DNA from: a virus
Strand: one strand, 5' to 3'
IMG/VR virus record: IMGVR_UViG_3300037235_000042
Span: 1 to 64,000 of that record
DNA: 64,000 bases
The notes below the pieces were generated by a model that was not told the DNA's origin, did no database searches, and was given only the letters and a program-made list of their open reading frames with translations. Below are positions 18,013 through 41,978 of the stretch, piece after piece (within the stretch, counting starts at the first letter, position 1; each line of letters begins with the position of its first letter). The position numbers and the translations under genes were made by a program.

Positions 18013-18482
18013 TTCGCATCTGCCGCCGTAATCCTCTGTTTCAAGCAAGGACTCAACCTCGCATGACAGGGCCAGAAGTGTTCAAGCGGCTGTCCCCACA
18101 TCGCCAATAGAGGACTACCTACCTGATCGAACGCCCAGAACACCAGCACCGAACAGATGAAATGGTTAGCCGTACACCAGTCCCGGCCCAAGGCGATCCC
18201 TAGAATATCCAGTTCGTCATAGGGTCGGCCTAGTTGCGTTAAAGCTTTCTGGAACGCGGCCTGCATCACAGTTGGATCCTGATGATCAAGCAACAGGTTG
18301 ATCGTTTGGTGCTGGCTTACAGGTCGCCACGTCACTCCCTTCCCGTCGGCCATGGCGCTGAACGTCTGTCCGTTGTCGAGGTTATAGAACCCGATATGCG
18401 AGTCGATGCTGTCGCACTTCGCCCGGATCAGGACGCTGATTGGGTCGAACTCTTCGGTCGAAGTGAAGATGCAGATGTTCAT
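18009..18482 (-). CDS. permuted papain-like NlpC/P60 (YiiX/YebB-like) peptidase/amidase
   Basis: His before Cys: SHIGF ... QLGRPYD ... FICSVLV. Confidence 0.75.
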   Translation of the reverse strand: MNICIFTSTEEFDPISVLIRAKCDSIDSHIGFYNLDNGQTFSAMADGKGVTWRPVSQHQTINLLLDHQDPTVMQAAFQKALTQLGRPYDELDILGIALGRDWCTANHFICSVLVFWAFDQVGSPLLAMWGQPLEHFWPCHARLSPCLKQRITAADAK

Positions 18483-19213: not shown

Positions 19214-19353
19214 TCATTCTCCTTTAACTTCTGCAGCCTGATCTCTAGTTCCTCGATCCGGTGTTCACAATACTTCCTGATCCCGCTGTCGGTAATATCC
19301 TTGAGATATTCCGTTAACTCAGCCAACTCCAACTTGATCTCTTCGACGTTCAT
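19210..19353 (-). CDS. small coiled-coil protein (47 aa, not in ORF track)
   Basis: ATGA overlaps on both sides; MNVEEIKLELAELTEYL... Confidence 0.55.
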   Translation of the reverse strand: MNVEEIKLELAELTEYLKDITDSGIRKYCEHRIEELEIRLQKLKENE

Positions 19354-19565
19354 GGTGACGGAATAATCTTCTGTTGCATATCGCGTTCTTGCTGGCGTCC
19401 CCGGTCTACCGCATCCATCAACCTTTGCGCGAGGCCGCTGTTGATGAGGATGTGAAGATTGGTGATCTTGTCCCGGTTGATGACTCCGAGAATAAGCGCT
19501 CCCGCTCCCATGATCGTAGGCGGAGTAGCAGCGATCAGCGCGACCTTGATGGCTTCTGAGATCAT
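19350..19565 (-). CDS. small membrane protein, holin-like
   Basis: N-terminal TM segment followed by a charged tail; lies upstream of putative lysins. Confidence 0.5.
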   Translation of the reverse strand: MISEAIKVALIAATPPTIMGAGALILGVINRDKITNLHILINSGLAQRLMDAVDRGRQQERDMQQKIIPSP

Positions 19566-19651
19566 GTAATTAGTAAACCTATGGTAGAATAAAAAGGCGG
19601 TTCACTGTTGAGAGTGAATCCGCCCAACACCGATGCCATAGGAGGGCAGCG

Positions 19652-20139
19652 ATGTCCAATCTCAAGTCTACCACCGAAACCTGTTACGAATTTCTCATTC
19701 GCACAATCCTTGAACATGCGGAAGGATCGAATCCCGATGCTTGTCTGCTTTGGCCCTTCAACAAAAGCAAAGAGGGCTACGGCAAACTCAAGCATGATGG
19801 AAAACATTATCGTGCCCACAGGGTTGCCTACAGATTGGCGAATGGAGGAGAAGCAATGCTCAAGGTGCTTCATCGTTGTGATAACCCTCTTGTTACAATC
19901 CCAAGCATCTTTTTGAGGGAACTCAGAAAGATAATTGTATGGACTGTTATGCCAAGGGCCGAGGACGCCAAGGGGAAACGGCGAAACAACGTCATTCTCA
20001 CTGAAGAACAAGTTCGAGAGATAAGAGCTACTTATAAGAGCCATGCCCCTATGACCCCGAACTTGCCAAAAAGTTTGGCGTCTGTCGTGGTGCCATTTAC
20101 GCCGTGGTAGCTAGGATTAATTGGAAACATATACCGTAA
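19652..20139 (+). pseudogene. frameshifted HNH endonuclease
   Basis: CLLWP, GYG, RAHRVAY, VLHRCDNP; continues in a shifted frame CYNPKHLFEGTQKDN, returns for LTEEQVREIR, shifts again for ELAKKFGV...NWKHIP*. Confidence 0.8.
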
Positions 20140-20153
20140 GTTATTGAAAACAA

Positions 20154-20387
20154 TCATCGTGGCGGGCGATCCCCGTTATCAGGCTTAAGCACCCAGTCTG
20201 TCGCCTGCGCGTCCTGCTTCGACAACGTGTATATTCCCTGATTCGTGGTCGTCCACAGGTCTACCGTTCCGTCATCGTTGGCGATTGCCTGATCCAGCGG
20301 CCAGGACTCCCGCCATGCGATCTGCGGTGATCCTCCGTCCGATCCCCCGCCGTTCTGTACCTCGTTATAAGCTTGAGTTCCGTTCAT
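20154..20387 (-). CDS. DUF2829/Tad2-like small protein (possible cyclic-nucleotide sponge)
   Basis: GGAGG RBS, ATGA overlap; MN..QA...V.NG...AWRESW...Y.LS..D..ATDW pattern. Confidence 0.5.
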   Translation of the reverse strand: MNGTQAYNEVQNGGGSDGGSPQIAWRESWPLDQAIANDDGTVDLWTTTNQGIYTLSKQDAQATDWVLKPDNGDRPPR

Positions 20388-20971
20388 TTCCTTTCCTCCC
20401 TGAAGTCGATAAACTTCGCTGTTCCCGGATAACGATCCACTGTCCATCCGGTTCGCTCCTGATCCGCGAAACTGTTCCCGCAACTCAACAACTCAACCGT
20501 GACGTCGACTGACATGCCAGGATCCAGATCCGCATGAGGTTCCTCACATTCCTTCCATAAATAAGCTCTCCCTGCTTGACCCGCGATTGGTTGTTTACTA
20601 ACCGGGTCGATCTCCTGAACCCAATAGTTATAAGAGTCGATCTTCTTCAACACATGCATGGTGTAACTGGTCACAGGATGAACCTTCTGTGTCGCCAGAT
20701 ACAGTCTATCAACGCCGATCCCGGCCAAAAACGCGATCAGGCTAACAATCGCCAGACTGGTTTCCCGGATCTCGGTCATAATCTTCACGTACAACAGGCT
20801 AATTGGCATCTTCCATTGCTCTGACTTTCCGCTCCAGTTCCTCCACTCTTTTTTCAAGTGTATCCCGGCGGTTAACAGAACGAAACAACAGCCAGCCCAG
20901 CAGGCCAACCAGCCAGCGTAGGACCATACTACCTCTATCCATGTATTCATTATTAATAACTCCAGCCACAT
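20384..20971 (-). CDS. membrane protein
   Basis: Two hydrophobic segments; AGGAG RBS. Confidence 0.6.
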   Translation of the reverse strand: MWLELLIMNTWIEVVWSYAGWLACWAGCCFVLLTAGIHLKKEWRNWSGKSEQWKMPISLLYVKIMTEIRETSLAIVSLIAFLAGIGVDRLYLATQKVHPVTSYTMHVLKKIDSYNYWVQEIDPVSKQPIAGQAGRAYLWKECEEPHADLDPGMSVDVTVELLSCGNSFADQERTGWTVDRYPGTAKFIDFREERK

Positions 20972-20984
20972 ATTTACTCCTGAA

Positions 20985-21416
20985 TTAGGATGATTTCGGA
21001 GGCTGGTTAGTTGCGCTCGGGGGCGTGGTCCCAGCCCCAGATCCAGTCTCGGTCGTGGTGGTAATGGTAGAAGTCTGTTTGATTCCGGCGTCGACTTTTT
21101 GAATCGTGCTTTCCGTCTTCTCGGTGATGACTACTTTATCCGGCGCTCCATGAAGCTGAAGGAACTCGAACATCCGATATCCTCCCTGGAACAGGAACAT
21201 CACGCCCATTAGTTTAAGTGTATTACCCACGCCGTTGGTCAGGTTGAAACGGTCTGGGGCGATTCCCATTCCTGCCATGGCCGCGACCATAGATGATGAC
21301 CCTCCACTGATAAAGGAACGCATGATCCCCAGCCACCAGGAAGGCCAGTCGTAGGCTTGGGCATTTTTGAACGCCGCCATCATCATCATTTTCAAGGCTC
21401 CTTTAATAAGCTTCAC
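20985..21416 (-). CDS. membrane protein, possible holin
   Basis: Two hydrophobic helices, hydrophilic tail; true start may be the MMMM run. Confidence 0.55.
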   Translation of the reverse strand: MKLIKGALKMMMMAAFKNAQAYDWPSWWLGIMRSFISGGSSSMVAAMAGMGIAPDRFNLTNGVGNTLKLMGVMFLFQGGYRMFEFLQLHGAPDKVVITEKTESTIQKVDAGIKQTSTITTTTETGSGAGTTPPSATNQPPKSS

Positions 21417-24400
21417 AACTGAACGAGATCACGTCTCCACTGACGTTCCCGGCTGGCAGGGTAAGCGATCCCGTCGTGGTCGAGTGAGCGCTCTGGTAGA
21501 TGCCGTTCCCGGCGGCTGTAGTCTCGTCTGCGCCATCGCAGTGCCAGCCATTGTTGGCCGTTATGGGATTAGCTCCTCCGATAGTTATCACTACCGTACA
21601 CGCCCCGGAAACGCCGGTCTTGAAGCTGCCATTAGCAGCCCCGCCGACCAACGTACCGTTAGTGCAACCAGAAGCGGTGAACTGAGAACCAGTTGATTGG
21701 ATCCCGCCTACCTGCCATAGTCCTGGGGTGCCGTTGAAAGCTCCTGATTGTTCGTAATGGACGACGGTACATCCGGCGGCAGGACAGCCTGATCCAGCTG
21801 CGGTTATAGTCTGACCGCCAGGGGAATCGTCTTGGAGTATCTTCTGGCTGTTCCCGATAACGCTGATGTTATCAGCCATGCTGCCGGTTACGCCGCTGTA
21901 GAAGTGAACCGGGGCTACGTTGGTCGCACCGCCTTGATTGGCGGTTGAGACATTCCGGACCACATAACCATTGCCGCCGTTGGTCTGGCCAAGATCTAAG
22001 CCGCGTTCGGTGAACTCGCAGTGCGCGTTGTCGATTTCAATCCGTAGGAACCCGTCATACCAGCCGCAATCATAGAACGTTTCGAGCAGCGAGAGATTCT
22101 TTCCGGTCACAGTCCCTTGATTAAACGCCGTATTGCCAGAGTCGCCTATATTCCCCCTCAGGATGTCATAGCCTTCGAAAGCGAACGGATAAGGTAAAAC
22201 TCCGGAAGAAGATGCGATATAACTCGGCCCGGTAGTAATATCCATCGTTCCGGTTGAGTAATGCGCTGGACCGGCCTCGCCCGTGTAGTTAAACGTCCTG
22301 TCAGTCATCATCCCGGCCATGATTGAAGCCGTAGCGACTTCTGAAGTACAGTTACTACCCGTCCCCGGAGGAGTGCAGCCAATGATTCCGCCGTTGTTAA
22401 AATTCCCTGAGTTCATGGCGACGTGAATACGATGGAAGCCATCGCGTTCCTGTGCGCCGTTCAGCAACAATCCGATAGCTAGTGGCATACCTTCTGGGTC
22501 GATAAAGAAATCCTGTAACTGGCTGCCGAAGGAATTATTCTGATAAGCGTCGTTCGAGACTCCGCCTGCCCAGCTCAGGATTGGAATAGCCGTAGGGTGA
22601 TATAGAGCATAGGTTAATCCAGCGACTCCGGTCGGGCAGACGACGCCGGGGTTATTTCCTTCACTTCCCCAGTTGCCCGATACGGTTAAGGAAGTAGTTG
22701 AATTAACCGCCGTGATCAGGGCTGAGCATGCGTTGGTCGCGTTAGGGCAGGTCGCTCCATGGCTGCTCGACGTCGCGCAACTGGTCAGATAGCCTCCGAC
22801 CATGGCTGAGGTCCAAGTCGTTCCAACTCCGGTGACGGTTGGGTTGTTTCCGGAAGCGACGGAAATCGTCCCGGTCGTATAAGGAGAGCCATCTAGAAAT
22901 GGACCGCCGACTGATCGAGTAGCGGTCGTAGGGAATTGCGGGAAGCCTGCAGGCCCGCAGGTCAGTCCAGAATTCTGCGGAGCGTAGCAGACAATAAGCG
23001 CTGTCCCAATTGGCCCCTTGGATGCGCCGGAGGTCACGCCAATCCACTGGTGAGCGCCGACCGTAGTCGTCCAGGGAGCGCTGGTAATAATCCAGTAATT
23101 TCCCCAGAGAATCACGGATTGGAAGCCTTGTCCGAGTCCGGCGGAGATGTCTGAGTTACTGAAGACGCACTGTTGAAACGCTCCTCCACCAGGGCAATAG
23201 GTTCCACCTGTCGAGGCGAACGCTCCAGGGTTCCGGGCGTCGATAATCGTCCCGGATCCAAGGTTAGATTGCAGAGTAGCTAGAGCTGCTGCGAAGTCGG
23301 CGGTTGCTACAGGTAACGTGCCGCATAAGGCAACCGTACAATCCCTGACGTCGAACGCCTGTTTGCTTTGCGCGAAGTAGGTCGTTCCCGGCCCGTTGGC
23401 AGCAGGAACTTGACCAGAAGCGCTTGCGGTAGGCAGACCGCTGACCGTGTTCAGCGCTGTGTATTCCGTGTAGCTCGCGCTGTCTAGATATTCCGTGACC
23501 GTTTTGGAATTCCCGGCGATGTCGATCTGGAACTGGAAACCCGTGTCTGATCCCCAGCCGCTAGGTAATCCGCCCGCTGAAGTCGGGCCGGTATTAAACA
23601 GGGTATTGATCCCGTCCACGGTGATGCTGTCGTAATATTCACAAGGATAAGCGTTGTGGTTCACCGGATTCGTGCAACCGTTCGTGTCTCCGGCTATTCG
23701 GTGAACGTTCTCTGTGATGGTGTGCCAGCCTGGGGTATTGTTAAGCAACGCACAAGTGACAGGAGTTGTGATCCAGGCTCCGCCGACTCCGGCTGTTCCT
23801 TGCTGGAAGATATCCCAGAACCCTCCATTACATTGGCTGCCGAACATGAATTCCGTACAGGTATAGGTGCTACAAGTTTGCCCCGGTGGGGCTGACACGA
23901 AGATGAACTGATCGAATTCTAAAGCCGAAGCGTTCCCCCAGTTTCCAGGGTTATAAACGGAAACCGTAAACGACTGAGCTACGATAGCTGCAGATTGGGC
24001 TTGGCTGTCGTGAGTTTTATAAGTAGCGAGGATGTTGGTTTGATTGCCTGAGCCGGTCGAGATGGAAGTTTCCGAGAATTCAATGCAACTCCCGTCCGCG
24101 CAAGGAGGAGTAGTGCTGATCTCGCTGAAGATGTGCGAGGCCGGAGCTACGTTTCCCCCCGGACTTCCCCCGCTACACATGCCGATATAACATATCCCCC
24201 AGGTAGAAGTCGCATCGTCGATATTGGGGAAAGTCTTGGAAGATGATCCTCCGCCGCCCGTGCCCCCGCTTCCATTGATCAACCCACCCCACATTCCGTT
24301 GTAGTAACCACAGTCCTGTCCGGTTACGGCTTGAGGAACGAGGAAGCCTGGAGTCGTGTTGGTCGATGCTGTACAGCTGGGATTACAGTCGAGACATTGA

Positions 24401-25245
24401 ACCACGGTGCCGTTCGGTGGGCTAACCGGCAAAGTGGCGAAGGTGACAGCGGATCCGGGAAGGATCAACCCGTCCGAACCACCGAAGGTGAAGAACCCTG
24501 GATTGGTGCTAGTGTCTAGTTGAGGATTGCTGTTCGTCAAGGTCGTCCCGCTGGCGGCTTGGGGGAAGACTCCAGTGCTCAGCCCGGTGATCGGCTGAGG
24601 CGTACAGGTCCAGTTGGTCCCGTTCCACGAGGGGAGACTGGGCGTCGGACAGCCTTGAGGGAGTTGATAAGCGCTCAGAATAGCTAGAGTTCCACTGCCG
24701 GTTATGGTCCCGCCCGATAATCCGGTTCCGCCAGTAATACTGGTAACCGCCGGACAGCTGACTTCTTCAACGCCGCCGGAAGGATTAGTCCATGTGCAAC
24801 CGTTGGCGTTGGTGAAGTTCAGCGTAGGTTGCGTAGCGTTAGGTGTGCTATTGGTTTGGATAGAAATATTGCCAGTGGCGTTCTGTGCAGTGACAAAATA
24901 GGAATAGACAACGTTATTCGTAACAGTGATCTGAACTATGTAATTTCCCGGAGAGACAAAGAAGCTGTAATTTGCGTATTGGTCTGTAGTATAAGGGTTG
25001 GACGCAGCTTGGGTTAACCCAGCATCTAGGTACAAGGATGCCAATGGGGAACAGGGAGTTCCAGCTCCACCAGTGTAGGAACATACCCGAACGCTAGCGA
25101 AAGCTGCAGGCCCACCTGAACCGACTGGAGGTGGTGGTTGGATCACTTGACCGCTGATTGCTCCGGATTGGCCGAACGCTGCTGAGGACACCAGTAGTAG
25201 CAACAGGATCAGCTGGATCTTTGAGCTTTGACGCAGAGCGAGCAT
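21403..25245 (-). CDS. large fibre/spike-like protein with signal peptide, lectin-like and beta-helix regions
   Basis: 1280 aa, G/T/S/N- and Cys-rich; tailspike-type N-terminal head (SLYLDAGLTQAASNPYTTDQYANYSFF); LLLLLVSSAAFG/Q. Confidence 0.7.
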   Translation of the reverse strand: MLALRQSSKIQLILLLLLVSSAAFGQSGAISGQVIQPPPPVGSGGPAAFASVRVCSYTGGAGTPCSPLASLYLDAGLTQAASNPYTTDQYANYSFFVSPGNYIVQITVTNNVVYSYFVTAQNATGNISIQTNSTPNATQPTLNFTNANGCTWTNPSGGVEEVSCPAVTSITGGTGLSGGTITGSGTLAILSAYQLPQGCPTPSLPSWNGTNWTCTPQPITGLSTGVFPQAASGTTLTNSNPQLDTSTNPGFFTFGGSDGLILPGSAVTFATLPVSPPNGTVVQCLDCNPSCTASTNTTPGFLVPQAVTGQDCGYYNGMWGGLINGSGGTGGGGSSSKTFPNIDDATSTWGICYIGMCSGGSPGGNVAPASHIFSEISTTPPCADGSCIEFSETSISTGSGNQTNILATYKTHDSQAQSAAIVAQSFTVSVYNPGNWGNASALEFDQFIFVSAPPGQTCSTYTCTEFMFGSQCNGGFWDIFQQGTAGVGGAWITTPVTCALLNNTPGWHTITENVHRIAGDTNGCTNPVNHNAYPCEYYDSITVDGINTLFNTGPTSAGGLPSGWGSDTGFQFQIDIAGNSKTVTEYLDSASYTEYTALNTVSGLPTASASGQVPAANGPGTTYFAQSKQAFDVRDCTVALCGTLPVATADFAAALATLQSNLGSGTIIDARNPGAFASTGGTYCPGGGAFQQCVFSNSDISAGLGQGFQSVILWGNYWIITSAPWTTTVGAHQWIGVTSGASKGPIGTALIVCYAPQNSGLTCGPAGFPQFPTTATRSVGGPFLDGSPYTTGTISVASGNNPTVTGVGTTWTSAMVGGYLTSCATSSSHGATCPNATNACSALITAVNSTTSLTVSGNWGSEGNNPGVVCPTGVAGLTYALYHPTAIPILSWAGGVSNDAYQNNSFGSQLQDFFIDPEGMPLAIGLLLNGAQERDGFHRIHVAMNSGNFNNGGIIGCTPPGTGSNCTSEVATASIMAGMMTDRTFNYTGEAGPAHYSTGTMDITTGPSYIASSSGVLPYPFAFEGYDILRGNIGDSGNTAFNQGTVTGKNLSLLETFYDCGWYDGFLRIEIDNAHCEFTERGLDLGQTNGGNGYVVRNVSTANQGGATNVAPVHFYSGVTGSMADNISVIGNSQKILQDDSPGGQTITAAGSGCPAAGCTVVHYEQSGAFNGTPGLWQVGGIQSTGSQFTASGCTNGTLVGGAANGSFKTGVSGACTVVITIGGANPITANNGWHCDGADETTAAGNGIYQSAHSTTTGSLTLPAGNVSGDVISFSCEAY

Positions 25246-27285: not shown

Positions 27286-27588
27286 TTAAGCCGCGTCCAG
27301 CTTCTTGTTCAACTTCGCCAGTTCAGCGTTGATCTCGGCCTTGCGTTCAACCGTAGTCTTCAAGCTGTCCTTGCGAGCCAGCAGTTCCTTCCGACGCGCT
27401 TCCAGCCGGTCGTGGTTCTTGGCCAGGATCTGACGATCCAAGCTCTTGCTCTGGGCCTCGATCCACTCAGGCAGTTCCACATCCTGTTCGATGTACTCAG
27501 TTACGAGTCCACGAGCGAATGCACGTAGAGAGACCATTTCATCAATGGACGCTCTGTTGTGGTCGAAATTCTTTAGCAACTCCAGCAC
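27286..27588 (-). CDS. coiled-coil hypothetical protein co-transcribed with the TROVE gene
   Basis: AAGGAG RBS, GTG start 16 nt after the TROVE stop. Confidence 0.7.
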   Translation of the reverse strand: MLELLKNFDHNRASIDEMVSLRAFARGLVTEYIEQDVELPEWIEAQSKSLDRQILAKNHDRLEARRKELLARKDSLKTTVERKAEINAELAKLNKKLDAA

Positions 27589-27604
27589 GGGTCAGTTCTC
27601 CTTT

Positions 27605-29119
27605 CTAGGCAACTACGGCCTCTTCGACTGTTTCCACCTTGGTTTTGAACACGTCGTTGAGGGTCAGCAAAGGAAATTCCATAATTTCCTCTAGCAACCC
27701 ATATCGTTGAACTCTCATGGTGGAGACGATATTTGGAAGAGAGTAAAAGTCGACTCCCCCTCTTAAATCGAACTCCTGCAAGTCGATCTCCGCTCGTTTC
27801 ATCGACTGGGCTAGGTCGATGTCGCCTATTCCATGCATCGATGGAGCCAGACGATAGAGATAAACAGGAACTTCTTTACCCAGAGTTGTGCAGTACCGCT
27901 TATACGTGTCTGCGAACCTCGGGGCAGTGTTCTCCTGTGCGTCTGACACGATAGCGATCCCGTCGGCCTCGACGCTTCGGTCGATTGCGTATTGAACGCC
28001 ACAACCAATCGAAGTTCCTGCTCCGTCGGCTGTAATCCATTTCGTGTCTGACTTGATCTCGTCATAGCTCTTTCCAGTAACGTCGAACACGCGTGAAGCA
28101 ACAGAGTCGAAGAAGACCAAAGTGATTTTGTTCTTCACCATCTTCCCTAGTGTTCCTGCTACCAGTCGAGCCGTTTCGATAGCGTTCGACATGGAAGGAG
28201 ATTTGTCTGCCAAGATCAGCCAGTTTCCCTCAATCCCTGCAGCACGTTTGAGTTGTTTCTCCTGCAAGTTCTGGAGCTTCCCCTTCAACCCTTCATCCGA
28301 GATCTGTTCCGCTGCTCGGGTAGTCTTCAGCACGTTCTTGGTCGACTTCGACGCCTTTTCAAGCGCTTCCTCGAACACGCCCCGCAGCGCCGGGTTCGTC
28401 TTGACCCCCAGGCGTTCGAGCATTTTCACATTCGTTACCAACTGCGAAGGCGTCATCTTTTTGATCAACGCCAGCACGAGGTCAGGATCGTTGATCTTCT
28501 TCCCCAACGCGCCCTGAGCGGCCATGAACGGGATGTTGTGCTCAAGGATCGCTCCAGCGGCTTCAAGCGCTGACATATTGATCAACTGAGCAACGATCTC
28601 TCTTTTCGAACCTTCCGGGTGGGCCATCTTCCCGTTGTGTTGGTAGAACAGGATATCCCCTACCCGGTCGGAACGCTTGCAGTGTCCCAAAGCGTAGAGA
28701 TTGGCAAAGGTCTTCCGGTCCTGCGTGACCATTGAGTCCCATTTCTGTGGAACGGCTTCGATCTTCTTCAGATAAGCTTCGATCAACCGGCGCAGGGTAC
28801 GCATTCTTCCGGCTGGACGAAGTTCCAGCGCGAACCGGTAGGCTCGCTCCAGTTCCCGAGGGCCGAGCAGCGCGATATGAGCTAGGGAATTGTCGATGAA
28901 TTCGTCTGGGTAGTTCTTGGCCTTCAGCGACACGACTGGTAACGCCACCTTGGCGTCACGGATCTGGCCTTTCAGCCGGTCCCAAGCTACGAGATGTGCA
29001 AAGAATTCAGGTTCCTGTTCAGCCGCCTTTAGGCCGATGGGAACGTATTCCTGAAGCTTCCCGTGAGGAGACTTCGACAATTCACTTAAAATAGTGTTCT
29101 TGGTAAGTCCTGTTTCCAT
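27605..29119 (-). CDS. TROVE-like helical + vWA domain protein (Ro60/Rsr-like RNA-binding protein)
   Basis: 504 aa, helical N-terminus (EQEPEFFAHL..W...GQIRD), C-terminal vWA with MIDAS LILADKSPSM, GTSIG, IVSDAQEN; YrlA-type RNA upstream. Confidence 0.75.
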   Translation of the reverse strand: METGLTKNTILSELSKSPHGKLQEYVPIGLKAAEQEPEFFAHLVAWDRLKGQIRDAKVALPVVSLKAKNYPDEFIDNSLAHIALLGPRELERAYRFALELRPAGRMRTLRRLIEAYLKKIEAVPQKWDSMVTQDRKTFANLYALGHCKRSDRVGDILFYQHNGKMAHPEGSKREIVAQLINMSALEAAGAILEHNIPFMAAQGALGKKINDPDLVLALIKKMTPSQLVTNVKMLERLGVKTNPALRGVFEEALEKASKSTKNVLKTTRAAEQISDEGLKGKLQNLQEKQLKRAAGIEGNWLILADKSPSMSNAIETARLVAGTLGKMVKNKITLVFFDSVASRVFDVTGKSYDEIKSDTKWITADGAGTSIGCGVQYAIDRSVEADGIAIVSDAQENTAPRFADTYKRYCTTLGKEVPVYLYRLAPSMHGIGDIDLAQSMKRAEIDLQEFDLRGGVDFYSLPNIVSTMRVQRYGLLEEIMEFPLLTLNDVFKTKVETVEEAVVA

Positions 29120-29131
29120 TCTTAACCTCTT

Positions 29132-29188
29132 CCCCGAACGTAAGATTGGCCCGACTAATTCTCTTAATCGGGCCTGTGTACGTCGAAA
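29132..29188 (-). promoter_or_regulatory. 5'-leader hairpin of the TROVE gene carrying the Y-module, overlapping the RBS
   Basis: ACGTA-CACA-GGCCCGATT...AGTCGGGCC-AATCT-TACGT, then GGGGAAGAGG and ATG 29119. Confidence 0.65.
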
Positions 29189-29194
29189 CTTTCA

Positions 29195-29267
29195 TCACTG
29201 GTGGGGTATTGAGTGCCCACATCTCCGATAGCTTGCGCTACCCGGCGTAATCCTTATACGACAGTGA
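29195..29267 (-). ncRNA. tRNA-like element with the anticodon arm replaced by a GCAA-capped hairpin, no CCA
   Basis: TCACTG/CAGTGA stem, D-like GTA..TAC, CCGGGTAGC GCAA GCTATCGG, GTGGG..CCCAC T-like arm. Confidence 0.55.
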
Positions 29268-29274
29268 AGATTTA

Positions 29275-29399
29275 CGGCGTTGGATCGTTTCAGCTATTTT
29301 ACGCGCTCTACCGCTGAGCTACGGTTCTTGCGAACCGGTTGGATTCGAACCAACGACCTCGGTCGCCAAGTGACATGTAAGCTGGAACCGTAAACGCCG
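29275..29399 (-). ncRNA. YrlA-type Y RNA (circularly permuted tRNA mimic)
   Basis: Ends pair (CGGCGTT/AACGCCG); order T arm (GTTGG TTCGAAT CCAAC), acceptor stem closed by GCAA (CGGTTC/GAACCG), D arm (GCTC AGCGGTA GAGC). Confidence 0.85.
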
Positions 29400-29404
29400 A
29401 TCTT

Positions 29405-29529
29405 TGGTGGGGAGTGTTGGATTCGAACCAACATGAGCAGTCTTGAAGGACTGTTGCATGAATCCAGTTTCAGTATGCGATGTGACTCGCAGGATCGCTA
29501 CTGGCGCTTTTCCATTTTGCTAACTCCCC
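29405..29529 (-). ncRNA. CCA-ended tRNA/Y-RNA hybrid (Y-module in the anticodon position)
   Basis: GGGGAGT/ACTCCCC-A-CCA, D arm, T arm GTTGG TTCGAAT CCAAC; insert CCAGTAGC GATCC TGCGA..TCGCA TACT GAAACTGG. Confidence 0.7.
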
Positions 29530-29534
29530 AAACT

Positions 29535-29631
29535 TGGTGGAGGGCTCCGGGTATTAGCCGGAGAAGCATGTAATCTCGCAATGTATGCGCTTTAAAGGCG
29601 CAGGATCGAACGTGATTTTGCAGAGCCCCCC
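29535..29631 (-). ncRNA. CCA-ended D-armless tRNA/Y-RNA hybrid
   Basis: GGGGGGC/GCCCTCC-A-CCA, TCCGG CTAATAC CCGGA; insert GATCC TGCGC CTTTAAA GCGCA TACA...TACATG. Confidence 0.65.
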
Positions 29632-29639
29632 GTAAAATC

Positions 29640-29767
29640 CCCATCGCAGGATCGCTTGAGCTAAGGTCTTGCGACCTCAAGGTTGGAATCGAACCAACAA
29701 CTTTCTGATTACTAGTCAGATGCTCTACCAATTGAGCTACGTGTAAGCCCGAGCCGTGTGCGATAGG
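29640..29767 (-). ncRNA. Y-RNA/tRNA-Thr(AGT) hybrid (Y-module replaces the acceptor stem)
   Basis: CCTATCGCA CACG GCTCGGGCT...AGCTCAAGC GATCC TGCGATGGG enclosing D arm, TCTGA CT AGT AA TCAGA, T arm and a GCAA hairpin; no CCA. Confidence 0.75.
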
Positions 29768-29773
29768 AATATT

Positions 29774-29790
29774 AAATTGTCAAAGAACAA
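29774..29790 (-). promoter_or_regulatory. rrn boxA-like antitermination element
   Basis: TTGTTCTTTGACAATTT between the promoter and the first Y-hybrid. Confidence 0.65.
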
Positions 29791-29803
29791 TGATGACTAC
29801 CAA

Positions 29804-29832
29804 TATGTAGCATCCTTGACAGAGGTTGTCAA
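29804..29832 (-). promoter_or_regulatory. sigma70-type promoter of the Y-RNA/TROVE operon within an inverted repeat
   Basis: TTGACA-17-TACATA with TGn extension; CTTGACA gaggt TGTCAAG palindrome. Confidence 0.55.
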
Positions 29833-29850: not shown

Positions 29851-29925
29851 TGGTCGGGGATGCTGATTCTGCCACAGCGACCCCTCGGTCCCAAGCCGAG
29901 TGCTCTGCTTCTGAGCTAATCCCCG
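29851..29925 (-). tRNA. tRNA-Pro(TGG)
   Basis: CGGGGAT/ATCCCCG-A-CCA; CTCGG CT TGG GA CCGAG; atypical T loop. Confidence 0.85.
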
Positions 29926-30011: not shown

Positions 30012-30087
30012 TGGTGGACCCTGTCGGCTTCGCTCCGACCGCCTCCGGTTTGCAGGACCGGCGCTCTCCTGAATGAGCTAAGAGCCC
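30012..30087 (-). tRNA. tRNA-Ala(TGC)
   Basis: GGGCTCT/AGGGTCC-A-CCA with G3:U70; CCGGT CC TGC AA ACCGG. Confidence 0.88.
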
Positions 30088-30410: not shown

Positions 30411-30487
30411 TGGAGTACTGGGTAGGACTGTAACCTACTAAGAAAGGCTTTGCAGGCCTCCGCTTCGACATCTTCAGCATCCAGTAC
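30411..30487 (-). tRNA. tRNA-Cys(GCA)
   Basis: GTACTGG/CCAGTAC-T-CCA (U73); GAGGC CT GCA AA GCCTT. Confidence 0.85.
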
Positions 30488-31075: not shown

Positions 31076-31152
31076 TGGTGCCGCATGTCGGAGTCCCACC
31101 GACTTTATCCTCCTTGAAAGAGAGGCCGCTCCAGTCCTTTGCGCTATGCGGC
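31076..31152 (-). tRNA. tRNA-Glu(TTC)
   Basis: GCCGCAT/ATGCGGC-A-CCA; CCTCT CT TTC AA GGAGG. Confidence 0.82.
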
Positions 31153-33174: not shown

Positions 33175-33251
33175 TGGCGACACCGGGAGGACTCCAACCT
33201 CCACCCTTCCGCTTAACAGGCGGCTGCTCGGCGCATCTCAGCTTCGGTGCC
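33175..33251 (-). tRNA. tRNA-Asn(GTT)
   Basis: GGCACCG/CGGTGTC-G-CCA; GCCGC CT GTT AA GCGGA. Confidence 0.85.
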
Positions 33252-33667: not shown

Positions 33668-34525
33668 ATGGCGAAACCGGAAAAATCCGTCCAAGAACTC
33701 CTCTCCGCAGGCGGCAACGGTCCCATCACCACACAATCTCTAGCCAAGCTGCTCGAAGTCGGCCTGCCGGAGATCCAGTCCCTGATCGATAATGAATATC
33801 TGCGCGTAATCTTCAACAAGGAATCCTTTCCTGCAACCGTCGTCGCCTGTCCAGGGGATCGCGGGTTGATCTGGCTCCGGCAGATGTTCCGTCCTTTTTA
33901 TCTTCGGCCTATGATCAAGTTGGTTGAAGTACGCGAGATGATCGAACAGTATAGAAAAAAGGAACCCAAACGCTGGGAGATTGACCGATGGGCAGCCGTT
34001 ATGGGAACGCTGGATTTCTACCGGAAGCTATGCTTCGAACACCGGATTCCAATCTACCACGACGAGGAATTCGGGGAGTTACTGACTATTGAAGGCTTCG
34101 GCTGGTTGCTCCTCCGGCTCCGGACGTCTTGGCAGAAACGAGGGAAAAAGGATCAGGCTTCGCTCTTAGCCTATCTGCTTAACACCCTACCGGATCCGCA
34201 ACTGAAGCCTAAGGATCCTCTGGAAGTCCCGCGTTACTCTGCCCAGTTGTCGAAAGAGATAAACCGGATCGCCCGTTTGCCTATTGAACAACGGACGATC
34301 ATGGCGCTGAATCTCTACCAGTGCTGGAAGGATGCACGGACAGTTCAGGAATGCCTGATCAAGTTGAAGGATCTGGAGAGGTATCTGGAAAAGGATAACG
34401 GTGGTCCAGGAAGCGGACATAGACGTAATCAATACGCGTTCAAATGCGGCCCGAGGGTAGCTGAGGTAATGGAATTCGACCGCAGGATCGAGAGGTTGAA
34501 GGATCAGGTTACGACGGTCGAGTAA
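33668..34525 (+). CDS. hypothetical protein, possible N-terminal HTH
   Basis: 285 aa; ITTQSLAKLLEVG..EIQSLI. Confidence 0.65.
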   Translation: MAKPEKSVQELLSAGGNGPITTQSLAKLLEVGLPEIQSLIDNEYLRVIFNKESFPATVVACPGDRGLIWLRQMFRPFYLRPMIKLVEVREMIEQYRKKEPKRWEIDRWAAVMGTLDFYRKLCFEHRIPIYHDEEFGELLTIEGFGWLLLRLRTSWQKRGKKDQASLLAYLLNTLPDPQLKPKDPLEVPRYSAQLSKEINRIARLPIEQRTIMALNLYQCWKDARTVQECLIKLKDLERYLEKDNGGPGSGHRRNQYAFKCGPRVAEVMEFDRRIERLKDQVTTVE

Positions 34526-34530
34526 ACCGA

Positions 34531-34722
34531 TCAGCAATCCGGCTTGTGGACGATTATTAAAGTGTCGACGTTCGGGATTATCTGCGGTCGACAGTCGCAA
34601 TCCCTTCCGATCTTGTGGCCGTGATGAAACTGAACCCCGTCGATCTCAATCCCTTGTACGACGTCGATCTGCACGACTTCTGCTTCACCGTCGTCGGGGA
34701 TTACCAGCCATTGACGTTTCAT
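34531..34722 (-). CDS. small hypothetical protein (H..CDCRP motif)
   Basis: Operon order; HKIGRDCDCRP...IIVH. Confidence 0.6.
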   Translation of the reverse strand: MKRQWLVIPDDGEAEVVQIDVVQGIEIDGVQFHHGHKIGRDCDCRPQIIPNVDTLIIVHKPDC

Positions 34723-34954
34723 CTTCTTGGGAAGAGTCGATCTCTTTCTTGAGTTCGTTGGCCATTTTTAACAAATGATCAGGTTCTTCGGACTCTAGGA
34801 TTGACATAACCTCGTCGCGGGAGAGATCGATCAGGAATCCTCCGTCGATAGGCGAACTCCCGGCGAGGAAGATCGAACAATGATCGTCGTCGATGGGCTT
34901 GACCACGGCTAGGAGATCAGTGTTGATTAGTAATTCGTCGAGCAGGATGAACAT
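34685..34954 (-). CDS. hypothetical protein
   Basis: Start abuts the upstream stop. Confidence 0.6.
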   Translation of the reverse strand: MFILLDELLINTDLLAVVKPIDDDHCSIFLAGSSPIDGGFLIDLSRDEVMSILESEEPDHLLKMANELKKEIDSSQEDETSMAGNPRRR

Positions 34955-37489
34955 TTACCTATTAACCTCTTCTCTGGTTTCCGTCTCTTCTTTCTGATCT
35001 TCCTTAGGCGCTGACTGTCCCGCGACCGCAGCTCCCGCGTAGCGTCCGACTCGACGAGGCTTATCCAATCTACCAGACTTGGCCGGAGTAATCTTAACCC
35101 TTCTAGGCGGTTTCGCTCCACGATACGCTGAGTATTGCGTTAACTGTCGGTCGAGATCCGCGATGGAGTTCTGGATCTGTTGCTGCAGATCCGACGGTAA
35201 CGCAGCATAAGGCGTGATATTCCGTCCTCCTCCAGCCCTGGCCACGTAATCCTGCAACCGCTTCATGGCTTGGTACGCCATCTGTGGATCGGTCGTGTAC
35301 ATCGTCCCTGGACCGACACGGGACACGTCACCACCAGAAGTTTCAGGGATCATTTGCCAGACGGTTTCACGTTTGGTCGGAGAGCCGGTAAAACTACGAT
35401 CAGGCGTGATACTCCCTTTCGGGCCGATTTCAAGCTTTCGCTCCTTGGGTGGAGTGTAGTAATCCTTGTGGAACGCCGGATCACCACCGACGCCGGTTCT
35501 TCCCTTGTGCGAAGACGGCTCGAAAGGTTCATAGCTAGGATTGGGAACTTCCCGCGTCCCCGCGTACTCCATCCGAGTCGACCGTTCATAAGGAGTGATT
35601 AATTCCTGAGGAATTCCGCCGTTGACGCGAAACATGGGCTCCCCCGGAGAGGAAGTAGTCATGTCACGTACTGGAACAGCACTGAAACTGTCTGCTTGGC
35701 CTTTTCCGTAAACTCGATGAATAGGTGCTTGTGAAGACGATGGAAGGGCTTTCTGTTCCACCGGAGCGACTTCTACCTTTTCTCCAGTTGCACCTTCGCC
35801 GAGCTTCCCTACTCCTTGCTTGAACCAGAGGTTGAACTCCCCGGCTGGTTCACGTTCGAATCTTAACGCCCGCTTGGCGACGTGGCGTTCCCACAACGAA
35901 CCGTGTTCCAGATTACCAAGATAACCTTTCGCTACTTCAGCTGCTTGGCTAGGGTCGACATCAGCGAAGTAGGTCGCGTGAATGCCGTCACGGAAGCGGA
36001 TCGCCGCAGCTTCCCTGGCTCCGTATTGTCGAAGGTCGACTCCGCTTATTTCAGATAACTTCGGATACATGAACTGCCGGATCGAGTCAGCGGCGATCTT
36101 CCATGCGTAGATTGTGTCAGCGGACGCACCAATAGTCTTACCAGGGACTCCACTTAGCGCTCCCTTGATCTTCTTGTTCGCGGTTATTTTGATATCGTTC
36201 AACTCGCCGATATTCTTAGCGTCGTCGACACGGTCAGCGAGGTTGTAGAGCGCTCTGGCGAGTTGAGGGTTGGCTGCTTTCTCTTCTTCAGCTGCGGAAT
36301 TCATCAGATCGTCTATGATCTTAGGCTTTATATCCTTGATGGAATCCGCCGCGTATTCCTGCGCGATCTTTCTAAACGGACGGTCAGCAATATCAACCGC
36401 GCCACTTGAAGCTTCTAGCGCCCGTCGTGCACCAGCGCGGATATTGCTCACGAACTTCCCAGTCGGGTTCCCTTGAGCATCAAACGCGGGTTCTACCCGT
36501 TGAAACCACTTCGCACCGCGCCGGACAGGAAACGATCCCGTGAACCGGCCTTTCATACTTTTGGTGGCCGGACTCTCTGAGAAGAAATCCGGATGAACAA
36601 CTCTTTCTTCCAAGGACCGCTGGTCGACGTAGCCGCTTTCCTGCAGCCATTGTTTCAACAAGGGTCGAACCTGTTGAGCGATCCACAAGTTATCATGGAC
36701 TTCACCGTAGATCGGTGTTCGATCAGCTTGGGACTTCCCGATCATTGCGGCGAGACTTTCGTCTTCCTTAACCGCGTGTCGGCCTGTAGCCTCACTGGAT
36801 TCACTCCCGCCGACGACTTTCTTCAACAATTTCCCTGCGCCGATAGTTGCAGCAGGAACGGTAAACATCGACGCAAGGCCACTAGTGTACATCCCTGCAC
36901 CGAAGTCCCTCCAAGCCTGATCAGGATCGCCGCCGAACAAGGCTGAGGTGAAGTTAAGTGATTTCCAAGCTTCCTTTGCTCCACCTTCTTTATTCGCTTC
37001 AGGATGAGATTGGAGATAACGTTGGAATTCTGAATCTGGTCTATCGGTTAATTGCCGGAAGGGGTCGGTCAGTCCCTTGCCGAAGTTCAGCGTAGAATCC
37101 CAGATCTTCTTCCCGGTCATCGGTCGGCCAGTTTCAGGATCGTTCAGAATAGCCATCGGTGCGCCGAGCTGGTCGGCTATTCCTTTACCTAATTCAACGA
37201 TGCCTGACGCTGCCCGGACGGTTCCGGCGTCGGACGTGGGTTCAACCTTTGTCTTCGGCCCAGCAGCAGGACGTTTAGCCTGTGCATAAGCAGCTGGAGC
37301 CAAGCGTTCAATGGTCTCGTCGAATTTCCTGTCTGACAGCTTGCCGAAATCCGGATCATGTTGCGCAAGGAAATCCTTCTGCCCCTTGGGCGTCATGGCA
37401 TGGAAATCCGGATCGTTCAGCACTGATTGGATGACTTGGGAGTTATCCTGGGGGCTGGACGCCTGCGGGTTGTTTTGCTCCGGGGGCAT
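34955..37489 (-). CDS. large internal virion/ejection protein (putative)
   Basis: 844 aa, helical, last of three A/G/Q-rich genes after the tail genes. Confidence 0.6.
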   Translation of the reverse strand: MPPEQNNPQASSPQDNSQVIQSVLNDPDFHAMTPKGQKDFLAQHDPDFGKLSDRKFDETIERLAPAAYAQAKRPAAGPKTKVEPTSDAGTVRAASGIVELGKGIADQLGAPMAILNDPETGRPMTGKKIWDSTLNFGKGLTDPFRQLTDRPDSEFQRYLQSHPEANKEGGAKEAWKSLNFTSALFGGDPDQAWRDFGAGMYTSGLASMFTVPAATIGAGKLLKKVVGGSESSEATGRHAVKEDESLAAMIGKSQADRTPIYGEVHDNLWIAQQVRPLLKQWLQESGYVDQRSLEERVVHPDFFSESPATKSMKGRFTGSFPVRRGAKWFQRVEPAFDAQGNPTGKFVSNIRAGARRALEASSGAVDIADRPFRKIAQEYAADSIKDIKPKIIDDLMNSAAEEEKAANPQLARALYNLADRVDDAKNIGELNDIKITANKKIKGALSGVPGKTIGASADTIYAWKIAADSIRQFMYPKLSEISGVDLRQYGAREAAAIRFRDGIHATYFADVDPSQAAEVAKGYLGNLEHGSLWERHVAKRALRFEREPAGEFNLWFKQGVGKLGEGATGEKVEVAPVEQKALPSSSQAPIHRVYGKGQADSFSAVPVRDMTTSSPGEPMFRVNGGIPQELITPYERSTRMEYAGTREVPNPSYEPFEPSSHKGRTGVGGDPAFHKDYYTPPKERKLEIGPKGSITPDRSFTGSPTKRETVWQMIPETSGGDVSRVGPGTMYTTDPQMAYQAMKRLQDYVARAGGGRNITPYAALPSDLQQQIQNSIADLDRQLTQYSAYRGAKPPRRVKITPAKSGRLDKPRRVGRYAGAAVAGQSAPKEDQKEETETREEVNR

Positions 37490-39674
37490 ACTTTTTGTTC
37501 AACCGTTCCTGGATTTCTTCGTCAGATTCCTTCTTCTCTCCAGCAGCAGCGTGGTGTTCCGCTGGTTCCGCTGATCGAGGGAACTTTTTATCCAGCTCCT
37601 CCTGCATATCCTTCGGCAGAAATCCCTTAGCTACATCGACGTCGTCTTGCAGGGTGTTGAGTTTCTGGGTCGCCTGAGCCTCGTCTTGGACATTGACGCC
37701 TAGCACGGGAAGTTCGTTCGACAACATGGCGTACATGGCCTGTTGAGGCTTACCGGAACTTCCTTGGAGCGAACGGATCGTAGCAGCGTTCGTCCAGGCG
37801 CGAAAGAAGTTGGTCAGATAAGTTTGTCCCGCCGGGCTCACCTTGCTTAAAGCTTCGTTGACTGCCGGGATCGCTGACCAGTTGTCTTTGAAATATGCCA
37901 GCCAGCCATAGTCGGAAGAATCATGCCCAGCGGATTGAGTCTTGGCCAGCGAATCCAAAGCCCGCATGGCGACTGAGATATTCTGCAGATCTTCTTTGTT
38001 CCTTAGAACGTTCAACGTAGATTTTCGCAGCCCGATATCCGTCTTCGATCCCGGCATGCCGTTGATCGTCAGTTCCTGTCCAGCGATAGCCTTAGCCGCA
38101 CCTTGGTTATCCTTGGAGTATTTCTGGAACGCAATCGCGCCATGAGGAACGCCAGATTCTTGTGCGACCTTGTCTGCTTGTTTGAGATGATCTTCGACAG
38201 TTTTAGACTTATGGTGTTCAGGGGTAGGCTTCGTGGCCTTCGGAGGAACGTTGTGTAACGGCTGTTCTCCTCCTCCACGTTCACCTTCGCCGATTAGTTG
38301 TGCCCCTTCCTTAACCGCGCCTTCCGAGCCGACGTCGATTGGCTTGTCGACCTTCGTCCCCTTAGGTGGAGCGATCATCTGATGCTTGTACTGCGGCATG
38401 AACGGGACGACTAGTGTAGTAGGATTCCCGTTCGCGTCTCGTCCATCGATTTTTATATACTGCCCCTTCTGCGGAACCTTACCAACTTCTGCGCCTTCCC
38501 AAGTCTTGGTTAGAGGGTTGAAAACTCTTTGCACCGGTTGACCACTGGCGTCAGCGGTGGTCTTCAACTGACCGGAGACGGTCATAGGTTCGTAGCGGAC
38601 CATGGGCTGCCCGCCTGACTCGCCGTAGATAACTTCTCGGTAAGCATCTCCATCAGCCGGAGTGAACGTTCCACTCGGCCCAGGAACGCCGTTCGGATAC
38701 ATTTTCTTCAAATCTGTTCCAGTCACGTTCGGCCCGTAGCGGGGTGCGAAATACTTAGCTGCTCCTTGCGAGGCCGTTCCTCCGAGCGCCGAGATAGCGT
38801 CCTTAGTCTGCTGGATCTGACCGTCGTGTTGAGCCTTCGCCGCGTCGTCCATCTTCGACGTGTCCTGCTGCGTCAGGTCAGCCAGCTTACTCTGCAGCTC
38901 GACCTTCCGGGCTTCGTTCTCGGCGTTCTGTCCGCCGTATTTCTGATCGGCTTGGGCCTGTTTTGATCCTAGCTGATTGGCTTGGATATAAACCGGTGGC
39001 CCGAGCTTTAGTAGGGTTCCATAGATCCCTTCCATCTTCTCTTGGGGATCTTTCGAGAACGCTTGTTGAATAGGATTAGCGTTCTGATCCTGTTTCTTTT
39101 TCTTCCCCTTTCCTTGCGGAGTGATCTGCGCACCGTAAATCCCCATCCAGTTCTTCCACGAAGTATCGACTGCGCCACGGGCTTGGTCGAATTCTTTCAA
39201 CTGACTGTTGATCTCGTCGAGTCGGGCGGCTTGCTTGCTGGAATCTTCAGTCGGCTGACGAAGCGCTGGATCACCGGCTGAAGCTTGGGCGGTTCTTGAC
39301 TGGATCTCTCCTTCGATCTTCTTCTTCTCTTCCTGAAGTTTCTTCGGATCCCCATAACGCTTGACCATGTCGAGATATTTCTCGGCGTCGTTGTTATAGG
39401 AATACTGAGCAGCGTCGGCTTGCTTCTTCAGCTTCAGCGCCTTGATCTGATCAGCTTGAGCTTTCCCTTTCATGTAACCGCGCAGGATGGAATCGCCCAT
39501 CGAAGCGATCCCGCCCAAGGCTCCTTTGCCGCCACCGCCGAAGCCTAGGCTAGAAGGCTTGAACGGAGCCGGGGTTTCTACTTGTTGTGGAGGAGGCGCG
39601 GTGGCAGATTCCGGCAACTGTGCAGGTTGATAAGGCTGAGGGTCGGTCGGGTTATACTGAGGCGTCGTAGGCAT
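37443..39674 (-). CDS. internal virion/ejection protein (putative)
   Basis: 743 aa, Q/K/A-rich coiled coils. Confidence 0.6.
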   Translation of the reverse strand: MPTTPQYNPTDPQPYQPAQLPESATAPPPQQVETPAPFKPSSLGFGGGGKGALGGIASMGDSILRGYMKGKAQADQIKALKLKKQADAAQYSYNNDAEKYLDMVKRYGDPKKLQEEKKKIEGEIQSRTAQASAGDPALRQPTEDSSKQAARLDEINSQLKEFDQARGAVDTSWKNWMGIYGAQITPQGKGKKKKQDQNANPIQQAFSKDPQEKMEGIYGTLLKLGPPVYIQANQLGSKQAQADQKYGGQNAENEARKVELQSKLADLTQQDTSKMDDAAKAQHDGQIQQTKDAISALGGTASQGAAKYFAPRYGPNVTGTDLKKMYPNGVPGPSGTFTPADGDAYREVIYGESGGQPMVRYEPMTVSGQLKTTADASGQPVQRVFNPLTKTWEGAEVGKVPQKGQYIKIDGRDANGNPTTLVVPFMPQYKHQMIAPPKGTKVDKPIDVGSEGAVKEGAQLIGEGERGGGEQPLHNVPPKATKPTPEHHKSKTVEDHLKQADKVAQESGVPHGAIAFQKYSKDNQGAAKAIAGQELTINGMPGSKTDIGLRKSTLNVLRNKEDLQNISVAMRALDSLAKTQSAGHDSSDYGWLAYFKDNWSAIPAVNEALSKVSPAGQTYLTNFFRAWTNAATIRSLQGSSGKPQQAMYAMLSNELPVLGVNVQDEAQATQKLNTLQDDVDVAKGFLPKDMQEELDKKFPRSAEPAEHHAAAGEKKESDEEIQERLNKKYAPGAKQPAGVQPPG

Positions 39675-39677
39675 AGG

Positions 39678-41656: not shown

Positions 41657-41669
41657 TGTAAGAGATTGG

Positions 41670-41969: not shown

Positions 41970-41978
41970 TGGTAACCT

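Follow-up and report, generated by a model that had tools for sequence, protein, structure and literature searches.

Layout of the locus

The DNA analysed here is a 64,000-nucleotide (nt) stretch of viral sequence, positions 1–64,000 of IMG/VR record IMGVR_UViG_3300037235_000042 (hereafter the window, in whose coordinates all positions are given). Its minus strand carries, in 5′ to 3′ order, the end of a long array of transfer RNA (tRNA) genes, four RNAs (RNA1–RNA4) packed with 5-nt spacers between neighbours, a longer spacer, a leader hairpin, an open reading frame (ORF) for a 504-amino-acid protein, a second ORF for a 100-amino-acid coiled-coil protein, and a tRNA-Met gene (Table 1). The phage carries about 30 tRNA genes. 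A preliminary description, made from the letters of the DNA, had proposed a Ro60-like operon with one RNA module grafted onto tRNA bodies and repeated in the leader. A module scan with controls, together with covariation in relatives, bore out the shared module in the four RNAs preceding the 504-amino-acid gene, whose product is predicted to be a Ro60-type ring. Ro60 binds Y RNA on its outer surface and misfolded RNA ends in its central hole. We consider it about 75% probable that the locus encodes a Ro60/Y RNA system of a phage, from a clade that is divergent in sequence.

Table 1 Features of the Ro60-like locus, in 5′ to 3′ order.
Feature	Position in window	Strand	Evidence
tRNA gene closing the long tRNA array	29925–29854	−	
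Promoter-like TTGACA, 17-nt spacer, TACATA	29832–29804	−	Weak support
boxA-like 13-mer	29789–29777	−	Chance level
RNA1, Y-like RNA	29770–29637	−	Rfam tRNA match, covariation
RNA2, acceptor/T minihelix with capped module arm	29631–29535	−	Fold, covariance model R2
RNA3, tRNA-shaped, module replacing anticodon arm	29529–29405	−	Rfam tRNA match, covariation
RNA4, YrlA-like permuted Y RNA	29399–29275	−	Rfam YrlA match, covariation
85-nt spacer, cloverleaf-shaped fold	29274–29190	−	
Leader hairpin, module copy in the 5′ untranslated region	29183–29138	−	Fold z-score −4.6
Shine-Dalgarno sequence	29135–29126	−	
Ro60-like ORF, 504 amino acids	29119–27605	−	Predicted fold
Coiled-coil ORF, 100 amino acids	27588–27286	−	tblastn in relatives
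tRNA-Met (CAU), end of operon	27278–27203	−	Rfam, relaxed ARAGORN

One module on four tRNA-like bodies

RNA1–RNA4 share a module that consists of an outer helix, an internal loop with YACN opposite GAUCC, and an imperfect inner helix, followed by the hexamer UACAYG (UUCAUG in RNA3). In all four RNAs the hexamer sits after the 5′ strand of the inner helix, and GAUCC forms the 3′ side of the internal loop. These letters agree with the preliminary description, which had read GATCC in four of five module-bearing elements; the fifth, the leader, has AAUCU. The 9-nt inner helix attributed to all five elements is found in two of them, RNA1 and RNA4, which are also the two that carry, exactly as claimed, a C·A mismatch at position 4. 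The inner helix instead measures 7 base pairs (bp) plus an A·A mismatch in RNA2, 8 nt in RNA3 and 11 bp in the leader.

The RNA1 module comprises a 12-bp outer helix, CACG opposite GAUCC, and the 9-bp inner helix followed by UACACG. It closes the ends of an RNA whose body contains D, anticodon and T arms plus a GNRA hairpin. RNA1 matches the Rfam tRNA model (RF00005) with 54.3 bits, and because the match is limited to model positions 7–64, it is read as lacking an acceptor stem. The anticodon is not conserved across RNA1 types, in which many different triplets occur.

RNA2 combines a 7-bp acceptor stem bearing G3·U70, A73 and CCA with a T-like hairpin and no D arm, and the module forms a capped arm. 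The module is present as previously described, but both of its loops are larger than had been stated. The 7-nt anticodon-like loop capping this arm is not conserved, relatives carrying tetraloops. RNA3 has a 7-bp acceptor stem, a D-like arm, a long variable hairpin, a T arm, A73 and CCA. Its anticodon arm is replaced by the module, with the outer helix capped by a loop and two mismatches in the inner helix. The match of RNA3 to RF00005 (41.8 bits) spans positions 1–71, with a 41-nt insert in the place of the anticodon arm. Judged against this model, neither RNA1 nor RNA3 forms a complete tRNA cloverleaf with both acceptor stem and anticodon arm.

In RNA4 the module, with a 7-bp outer helix, UACG opposite GAUCC, and the 9-bp inner helix followed by UACAUG, again closes the RNA ends, and the body presents a T arm, an acceptor-like hairpin and a D arm in permuted order. 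A search with the Rfam YrlA model (RF02553), which the preliminary description had suggested, gave a full-length match to RNA4 (positions 1–114) with 42.5 bits and an E-value of 2e-7 in a 2.9-kb search, but this score lies below the gathering score of 69. At gathering thresholds, only tRNAs are detected by Rfam at the locus. The acceptor-like hairpin of RNA4 in the window is a closed 6-bp GNRA hairpin. In the RNA4-type RNAs of related loci L020, L028, L025, L002, L007 and L046, the loop of this hairpin instead contains CCACCA, followed by the 5′ acceptor strand, which is the layout expected if RNase P and 3′ trimming opened the loop into a CCA-ended acceptor stem, an opening reported for M. 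smegmatis YrlA.

Conservation and covariation of the module in related loci

Arrays of three to seven such RNAs are carried by about 70 related loci. Across 53 loci on viral contigs, the 1.5 kb preceding the ring gene shows a 7.7-fold enrichment of UACAYG (2.5 versus 0.33 per kb), with 3–7 copies per region spaced 80–170 nt apart. The sites were analysed with a rigid scan that demands only two helices around an internal loop beside UACAYG and does not impose the loop letters; RNAduplex-style pairing was dropped as too permissive. The module was found at 116 of 198 UACAYG sites upstream of the gene, 85 of them with a 3′ loop beginning with GA, versus 11 of 185 sites elsewhere, one of which had GA. 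Across the 64 kb of the window, high-scoring modules with a GA-type 3′ loop are confined to this locus.

The loop consensus in relatives reads Y-A-C-U on the 5′ side and G (88%), A (90%), C (76%), U (79%), then Y on the 3′ side, and a G-C pair opens the inner helix. On inspection, these letters match none of the consensus motifs of the kink-turn, loop E and hammerhead. The inner helix contains a mismatch in 54 of 86 modules, mainly at position 3 (3–4) from the loop and mostly purine·A or C·A, so the C·A of the window is one instance of a family-wide imperfection.

Covariation was assessed with MAFFT and RNAalifold, independently of the module scan, and this analysis recovered both module helices plus the tRNA-like arms. 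For the RNA1 type (window RNA1 and 27 homologues, n = 28), 23 of 29 pairs show compensatory changes, and 91% of alignment cells are paired, compared with 68% after shuffling and 33–43% after sliding. For the RNA4 type (window RNA4 and 19 homologues, n = 20), the number is 21 of 27 pairs, and RNAalifold recovers all helices. The small seed alignments gave compensatory changes in 17/29 pairs for the RNA3 type and 14/20 for the RNA2 type. Covariation was thus strong and was seen in all four RNA types, in line with the remark in the preliminary description that the stems differ in sequence yet stay paired, and the three topologies that it had distinguished on tRNA bodies recur in relatives, likewise with compensatory changes.

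While nhmmer returned no RNA2 homologues in related loci, these could be found through covariance model R2, which detects the RNA2 type in at least 12 further loci. With covariance models from the RNA2 and RNA3 seeds, acceptor-closed RNAs were detected in no fewer than 24 distinct loci. Nearly all of the approximately 30 such RNAs inspected encode NCCA, and because their capping loops are mostly tetraloops, they cannot decode. L070, the closest relative among the loci analysed (69% protein identity), holds a near-identical copy of RNA3 (108 bits). The order RNA1, RNA2, RNA3, RNA4 is kept in L019, L015 and L070, and further array members in relatives have a T arm only, or no tRNA motif, according to a rough regular-expression classification.

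A predicted Ro60-type ring beyond the reach of the TROVE model

The 504-amino-acid protein had been described as a TROVE/vWA protein. Its sequence is not matched by the TROVE domain (Pfam PF05731), and Pfam at E ≤ 0.1 yields only VWA_2, with 23 bits. PHROG 850 (‘RNA-binding protein’) matches weakly (E = 8e-4) over residues 262–421, in the vWA part only, and NCBIfam gives no match. A phmmer search against PDB sequences returned nothing relevant and no Ro60, and a profile of 41 sequences found the vWA domain only in the same set, again with no Ro60.

An AlphaFold2 model was built on 41 homologues, with a predicted local distance difference test score (pLDDT) of 81. It matches each of the solved Ro60 structures, along roughly 430 residues. 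The top 12 Foldseek matches of this model are all Ro60 proteins (phage phiLo, D. radiodurans Rsr, Xenopus and human), with E-values of 8e-11 to 1e-6 and TM scores of 0.49–0.63. The 10 best matches by VIA-align are also all Ro60 (Z 16.1–19.5), with 407–441 residues aligned over the span 5–486; the next-best matches are vWA-only proteins, with Z of 13.8 or less. The metal-ion-dependent adhesion site (MIDAS) motif DxSxS ... T ... D is intact, with D305, S307, S309, T369 and D393 invariant in the 41 homologues. From the model, the protein is predicted to be a Ro60-type ring in which TROVE-type HEAT repeats are closed by a C-terminal vWA domain. Because its predicted structure matches Ro60 while sequence models see only vWA, we read it as a member of the Ro60 fold beyond the reach of the TROVE model. 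The structural comparison with Ro60 proposed in the preliminary description therefore upholds the fold that it had named, but not a TROVE match in sequence.

Genome-specific loop letters

Positions 3–5 of the 3′ loop vary by genome, with UU(U), CUC, CUA, CAC, UCU, UUU and AUC in relatives and UCC in the window. Within one genome these letters hardly vary between RNAs, despite differences in the flanking helices, as illustrated by GACUA in 5/5 RNAs of L028 and L037, GACAC in 3/3 of L012 and GAUCC in 4/4 of the window. When the variants were placed on a quick maximum-likelihood tree of the ring proteins (IQ-TREE), at least three separate origins had to be assumed for GACAC, across well-supported branches, and at least two for GAUCU. 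The window’s loop variant is placed among GACUU genomes, and its nearest relatives L070 and L063 use GAUCY, as the window does. Because these repeated switches sweep all paralogues, they point to a shared trans-acting reader of the 3′ loop that is encoded in the same genome, for which the ring protein is the obvious candidate.

Leader, spacer, promoter region and tRNA genes

The leader hairpin is the most stable local fold, and follows the module plan as had been described, with a 5-bp outer helix and CACA opposite AAUCU below the 11-bp hairpin; it has neither UACAYG nor a body. It ends 3 nt 5′ of the Shine-Dalgarno sequence. Of the relatives with GAUCY-type loops, L070, L063 and L029 were checked; in each, AAUCU is likewise found in the element closest to the start codon, which ends 13–30 nt before it. 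A small module-bearing element abuts the ribosome-binding site in GACUU genomes too, mostly keeping G. An A at the first 3′-loop position of the gene-proximal module is found in L070, L063, L029 and L007, while a rule that it is always A fails, as L005, L006, L010, L016 and L017 keep G. It is plausible, although less likely than not, that a degenerate AAUCU module at the ribosome-binding site lets excess ring protein repress its own translation.

The spacer between RNA4 and the leader folds into a three-armed cloverleaf closed by a 5–6-bp stem (z-score −1.85), with no T-loop motif and no CCA. Its earlier description as tRNA-like found no backing, since Rfam returned only a chance-level match (skipping-rope, E = 0.15) and nhmmer no homologue in the approximately 70 related loci. 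L070 has no such spacer, its RNA4 being directly adjacent to the leader element.

The proposed promoter, TTGACA-17-TACATA, is present but is rejected by a strict sigma-70 scan rule, and nhmmer found no homologues of either the promoter region or the leader in related loci. Read-through from the tRNA array is as likely as transcription from an own promoter, because a tRNA gene lies 84 nt upstream. The proposed boxA did not stand up: the 13-mer has two mismatches to the consensus, and 31 of 100 shuffles match at least as well.

The tRNA-Met gene of the preliminary description was recovered by Rfam with 37.5 bits (cutoff 29), and by ARAGORN at a relaxed threshold only. Its T loop has G in place of the universal U55, and default ARAGORN misses the gene. 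Homologous genes come after the coiled-coil gene in L070 and L073; in L065, L066 and L084 they are located upstream of the array. Further tRNA genes missed by default ARAGORN lie at 29854–29925, 30012–30087, 30411–30487, 31076–31152 and 33178–33251 (all on the minus strand); they were recovered by Rfam, the RNA3 covariance model or relaxed ARAGORN, and include tRNA-Ala (UGC) with G3·U70 and tRNA-Asn. Every tRNA gene inspected in the window encodes its CCA end.

Family distribution and gene neighbourhood

The protein family is large, with at least 826 homologues; at 50% identity, 588 clusters were counted, and no cluster bears a name. The family was found on 53 IMG/VR contigs, the longest of 179 kb, and the window’s Ro60-like protein itself is recorded on contigs up to 98 kb. 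A metagenome scan with an alignment query found the family on 26 contigs, while the scan with a single-protein query found nothing. Among 185,579 species genomes, it occurs on only five contigs of metagenome-assembled genomes, mostly in Acidobacteriota bins, in keeping with a family restricted to phages. The 50,697 deposited phage records contain a single match, LR756511.1, an unannotated 595-kb uncultured phage (28% identity), and deposited phage genomes are therefore almost entirely without the clade. LR756511.1 was also set against window positions 21403–25245 (minus strand).

The coiled-coil ORF, also noted in the preliminary description, was located by tblastn immediately after the ring gene in 48 of 53 loci on viral contigs, and no family was assigned to its product by Pfam, PHROGs or NCBIfam. 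An ORF for an HNH endonuclease lies within the RNA array of L070 (Pfam HNH_5, E = 1e-10; L070:1709–2254, plus strand), and similar ORFs occur just upstream of the ring gene in L001, L002, L012–L015, L018, L019, L021, L025, L028, L030, L037, L075 and L082. In these relatives, the ORF stands inside the Y RNA array or between the array and the ring gene, and looks like a homing-type insertion into an RNA gene cluster; it is absent from the window. None of the ten large ORFs flanking the tRNA/Y RNA region (195–1280 amino acids; 18479–25245 and 33668–49966) is matched by Pfam at E ≤ 0.001, and the phage is very remote from characterised phages.

Comparison with known systems

According to Chen et al. 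2014 (PMC4201824), over 250 bacteria and phages have YrlA beside a TROVE gene. Several Y RNAs may be present at one locus and share polycistronic precursors with tRNA, and a 5′-strand GNCGAAN0-1G motif is the putative contact with Rsr (PMC4201824). As in YrlA/Rsr systems, the RNA genes here lie upstream of the ring gene and form a terminal stem with an internal loop, several Y RNAs are present per locus and would be co-transcribed with tRNA, and RNA4 has the T arm, acceptor-like hairpin and D arm in the permuted order of YrlA. The locus differs in that its ring protein is not recognisable as TROVE by sequence, in that the conserved letters are the YACU/GACUY loop pair and UACAYG, and in that the arrays of 3–7 RNAs include un-permuted forms. 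The preliminary description had noted that the module departs from the canonical Ro helix; this is confirmed, and the bacterial GNCGAA motif is absent as well, the 5′ strands reading GGCGUU-YACUG in relatives and UACG in the window.

Compared with YrlA, Yrn1 has its D and T arms in the opposite order (PMC4201824). RNA1 resembles D. radiodurans Yrn1 in having D and T arms in native tRNA order, an anticodon-position stem-loop between them, and a Ro-binding stem that closes the RNA (PMC4201824); in a comparison by description only, RNA1 differs in that its D arm, 7-nt anticodon-like loop and T loop are near-canonical for tRNA, and in its binding helix. M. smegmatis YrlA is cleaved by RNase P and CCA-tailed (PMC4201824), and the cleaved RNA is the two-piece equivalent of the CCA-ended un-permuted topology that is single-chain here.

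Hu et al. 2025 (PMC12135203) showed that the Ro60 of phage phiLo binds PNPase of the host as well as two Y-like RNAs encoded upstream. This Thermus phage system with Yrl1 and Yrl2 (PDB 9KOP, 9L5Y) likewise has a phage-encoded ring with Y-like RNAs just upstream, and phiLo Ro60 is the best Foldseek match of our model (E = 8e-11, TM 0.59–0.63), with 16% identity. In contrast, Yrl1 and Yrl2 are defined by CGAA motifs, and neither tRNA-like bodies nor a coiled-coil partner is reported there. In vertebrates, too, Ro60 binds a distorted helix near the paired ends of Y RNAs, but the 5′-strand GGUCCGA and bulged C of those RNAs are absent here, and animal Y RNAs have no tRNA-like domain. Y1 has the pentamer GACUA in its 3′ strand (PMC3928194), and the same pentamer is a 3′-loop variant here, a resemblance only. 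RNA2 is further reminiscent of the tRNA-like domain of transfer-messenger RNA (tmRNA), with an acceptor stem bearing G3·U70 and CCA, a T arm, no anticodon arm, a long non-tRNA arm and, putatively, a dedicated protein that holds it, although there is no mRNA-like reading frame and there are no pseudoknots.

Two of the three topologies, the YrlA arm order and the Yrn1 order, are thus already described, and the locus extends a kind of system that is already known. What is new is the divergence of the protein clade in sequence, a module with another consensus, CCA-ended RNAs that the genome encodes in un-permuted form, the array size, the genome-specific loop letters and the coiled-coil partner; no publication on these elements was found in a literature search that covered few subscription journals.

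Proposed function and alternative explanations

We propose that the module and the adjoining single-stranded UACAYG would serve as the docking site of the Ro60-like protein. This reading of the module as the putative binding site of the ring is backed by synteny and by the 3′-loop variants common to the RNAs of one genome. The RNAs would be cut from one transcript by tRNA-processing enzymes, and cleavage by RNase P and trimming of 3′ ends at RNA2 and RNA3, which end in CCA, could also free the ends of RNA1 and RNA4, 5 nt away. Each particle would then display its own tRNA-like surface: an elbow with anticodon arm, an acceptor/T minihelix with CCA, a full L-shape with CCA, or a YrlA-type elbow. 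By analogy with the Ro60 proteins of bacteria and of phage phiLo, the most likely role of the RNAs would be to tether or gate the ring toward host enzymes that recognise tRNA shape, or toward PNPase, and the outcome may, on the same analogy, be control of RNA decay or RNA quality control during infection. A decoy or adaptor role of the tRNA-mimic faces, suggested in the preliminary description, is speculation.

Several points weigh against a Ro60/Y RNA system. The link to TROVE is made without any sequence model, the ring fold being predicted, and the module lacks both known Ro60 recognition motifs and is weak in RNA2 of the window. As for the shared reader, the 3′ loops are mixed in some genomes (GUCUU, GACUU and GCCUU in L019), an appearance of co-evolution could arise from short gene conversion between the RNAs, and many forks in the quick tree are unsupported. 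The absence of canonical Ro motifs would also fit a module that is an RNA-processing or stability signal (for RNase III, RNase E or, for example, the coiled-coil protein), with the ring acting on other RNAs, as would the embedding of the array in tRNA clusters with 5-nt spacers and a coiled-coil gene that is as tightly linked as the ring gene. We consider this unlikely: the stem, internal loop and stem formed by the RNA ends follow the plan of Y RNAs, RNA4 aligns end to end with YrlA, and a pure cleavage signal needs no genome-specific letters that are constant across paralogues. The tRNA-like RNAs could also be functionless decaying tRNA copies, their shared motif being a remnant of recent duplication, as their position in a tRNA-rich region and the poor sequence conservation of RNA2 and the spacer might suggest. 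However, compensatory changes are present in 14–23 pairs per type among loci whose ring proteins are only 40–60% identical, and the RNA1–RNA4 order is conserved in three loci; we regard the chance of decay as negligible, the covariation having effectively refuted it.

The CCA ends bear on a further explanation, in which the RNA2 and RNA3 types are aminoacylated tRNA-like adaptors, RNA2 taking alanine via G3·U70 and A73, that act in a tmRNA-like process with the ring as cofactor. Consistent with this are the NCCA encoded by nearly all acceptor-closed RNAs inspected, the set G1-C72, G2-C71, G3·U70 and A73 kept in nine of these while pairs 6:67 and 7:66 covary, and the presence of the same set in the phage’s own tRNA-Ala. 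It is nevertheless improbable, given that the tetraloops capping the arms of relatives leave no anticodon, that G3·U70 is restricted to one subclade, and that no tmRNA was reported by ARAGORN in the window; because all tRNA genes of the phage encode CCA, the CCA of RNA2 and RNA3 may simply be inherited. A bolder version of the Ro60/Y RNA system, which we think has a small chance of being right, is a re-codable private pair, in which the last three 3′-loop letters would be a switching specificity code that keeps particles orthogonal to those of competitors or hosts, and in which, in addition, the RNA2 type would be charged with alanine and, tethered to the protein, would mimic an aminoacyl-tRNA, either acting on tRNA-directed machinery of the host or decoying it.

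Implications

The family is unnamed and comprises hundreds of clusters, and the earlier survey was TROVE-based; predicted Ro60-type proteins in phages are more widespread than TROVE searches show. The locus also extends the known system by a coiled-coil partner that is conserved and by a leader that may be autoregulatory. The genome-specific loop letters are directly usable for swaps of binding specificity. With one putative docking module on at least four tRNA-derived bodies per operon, repeated in dozens of diverged genomes, the clade amounts to a natural experiment on the role of the tRNA-like domain in bacterial Y RNAs.

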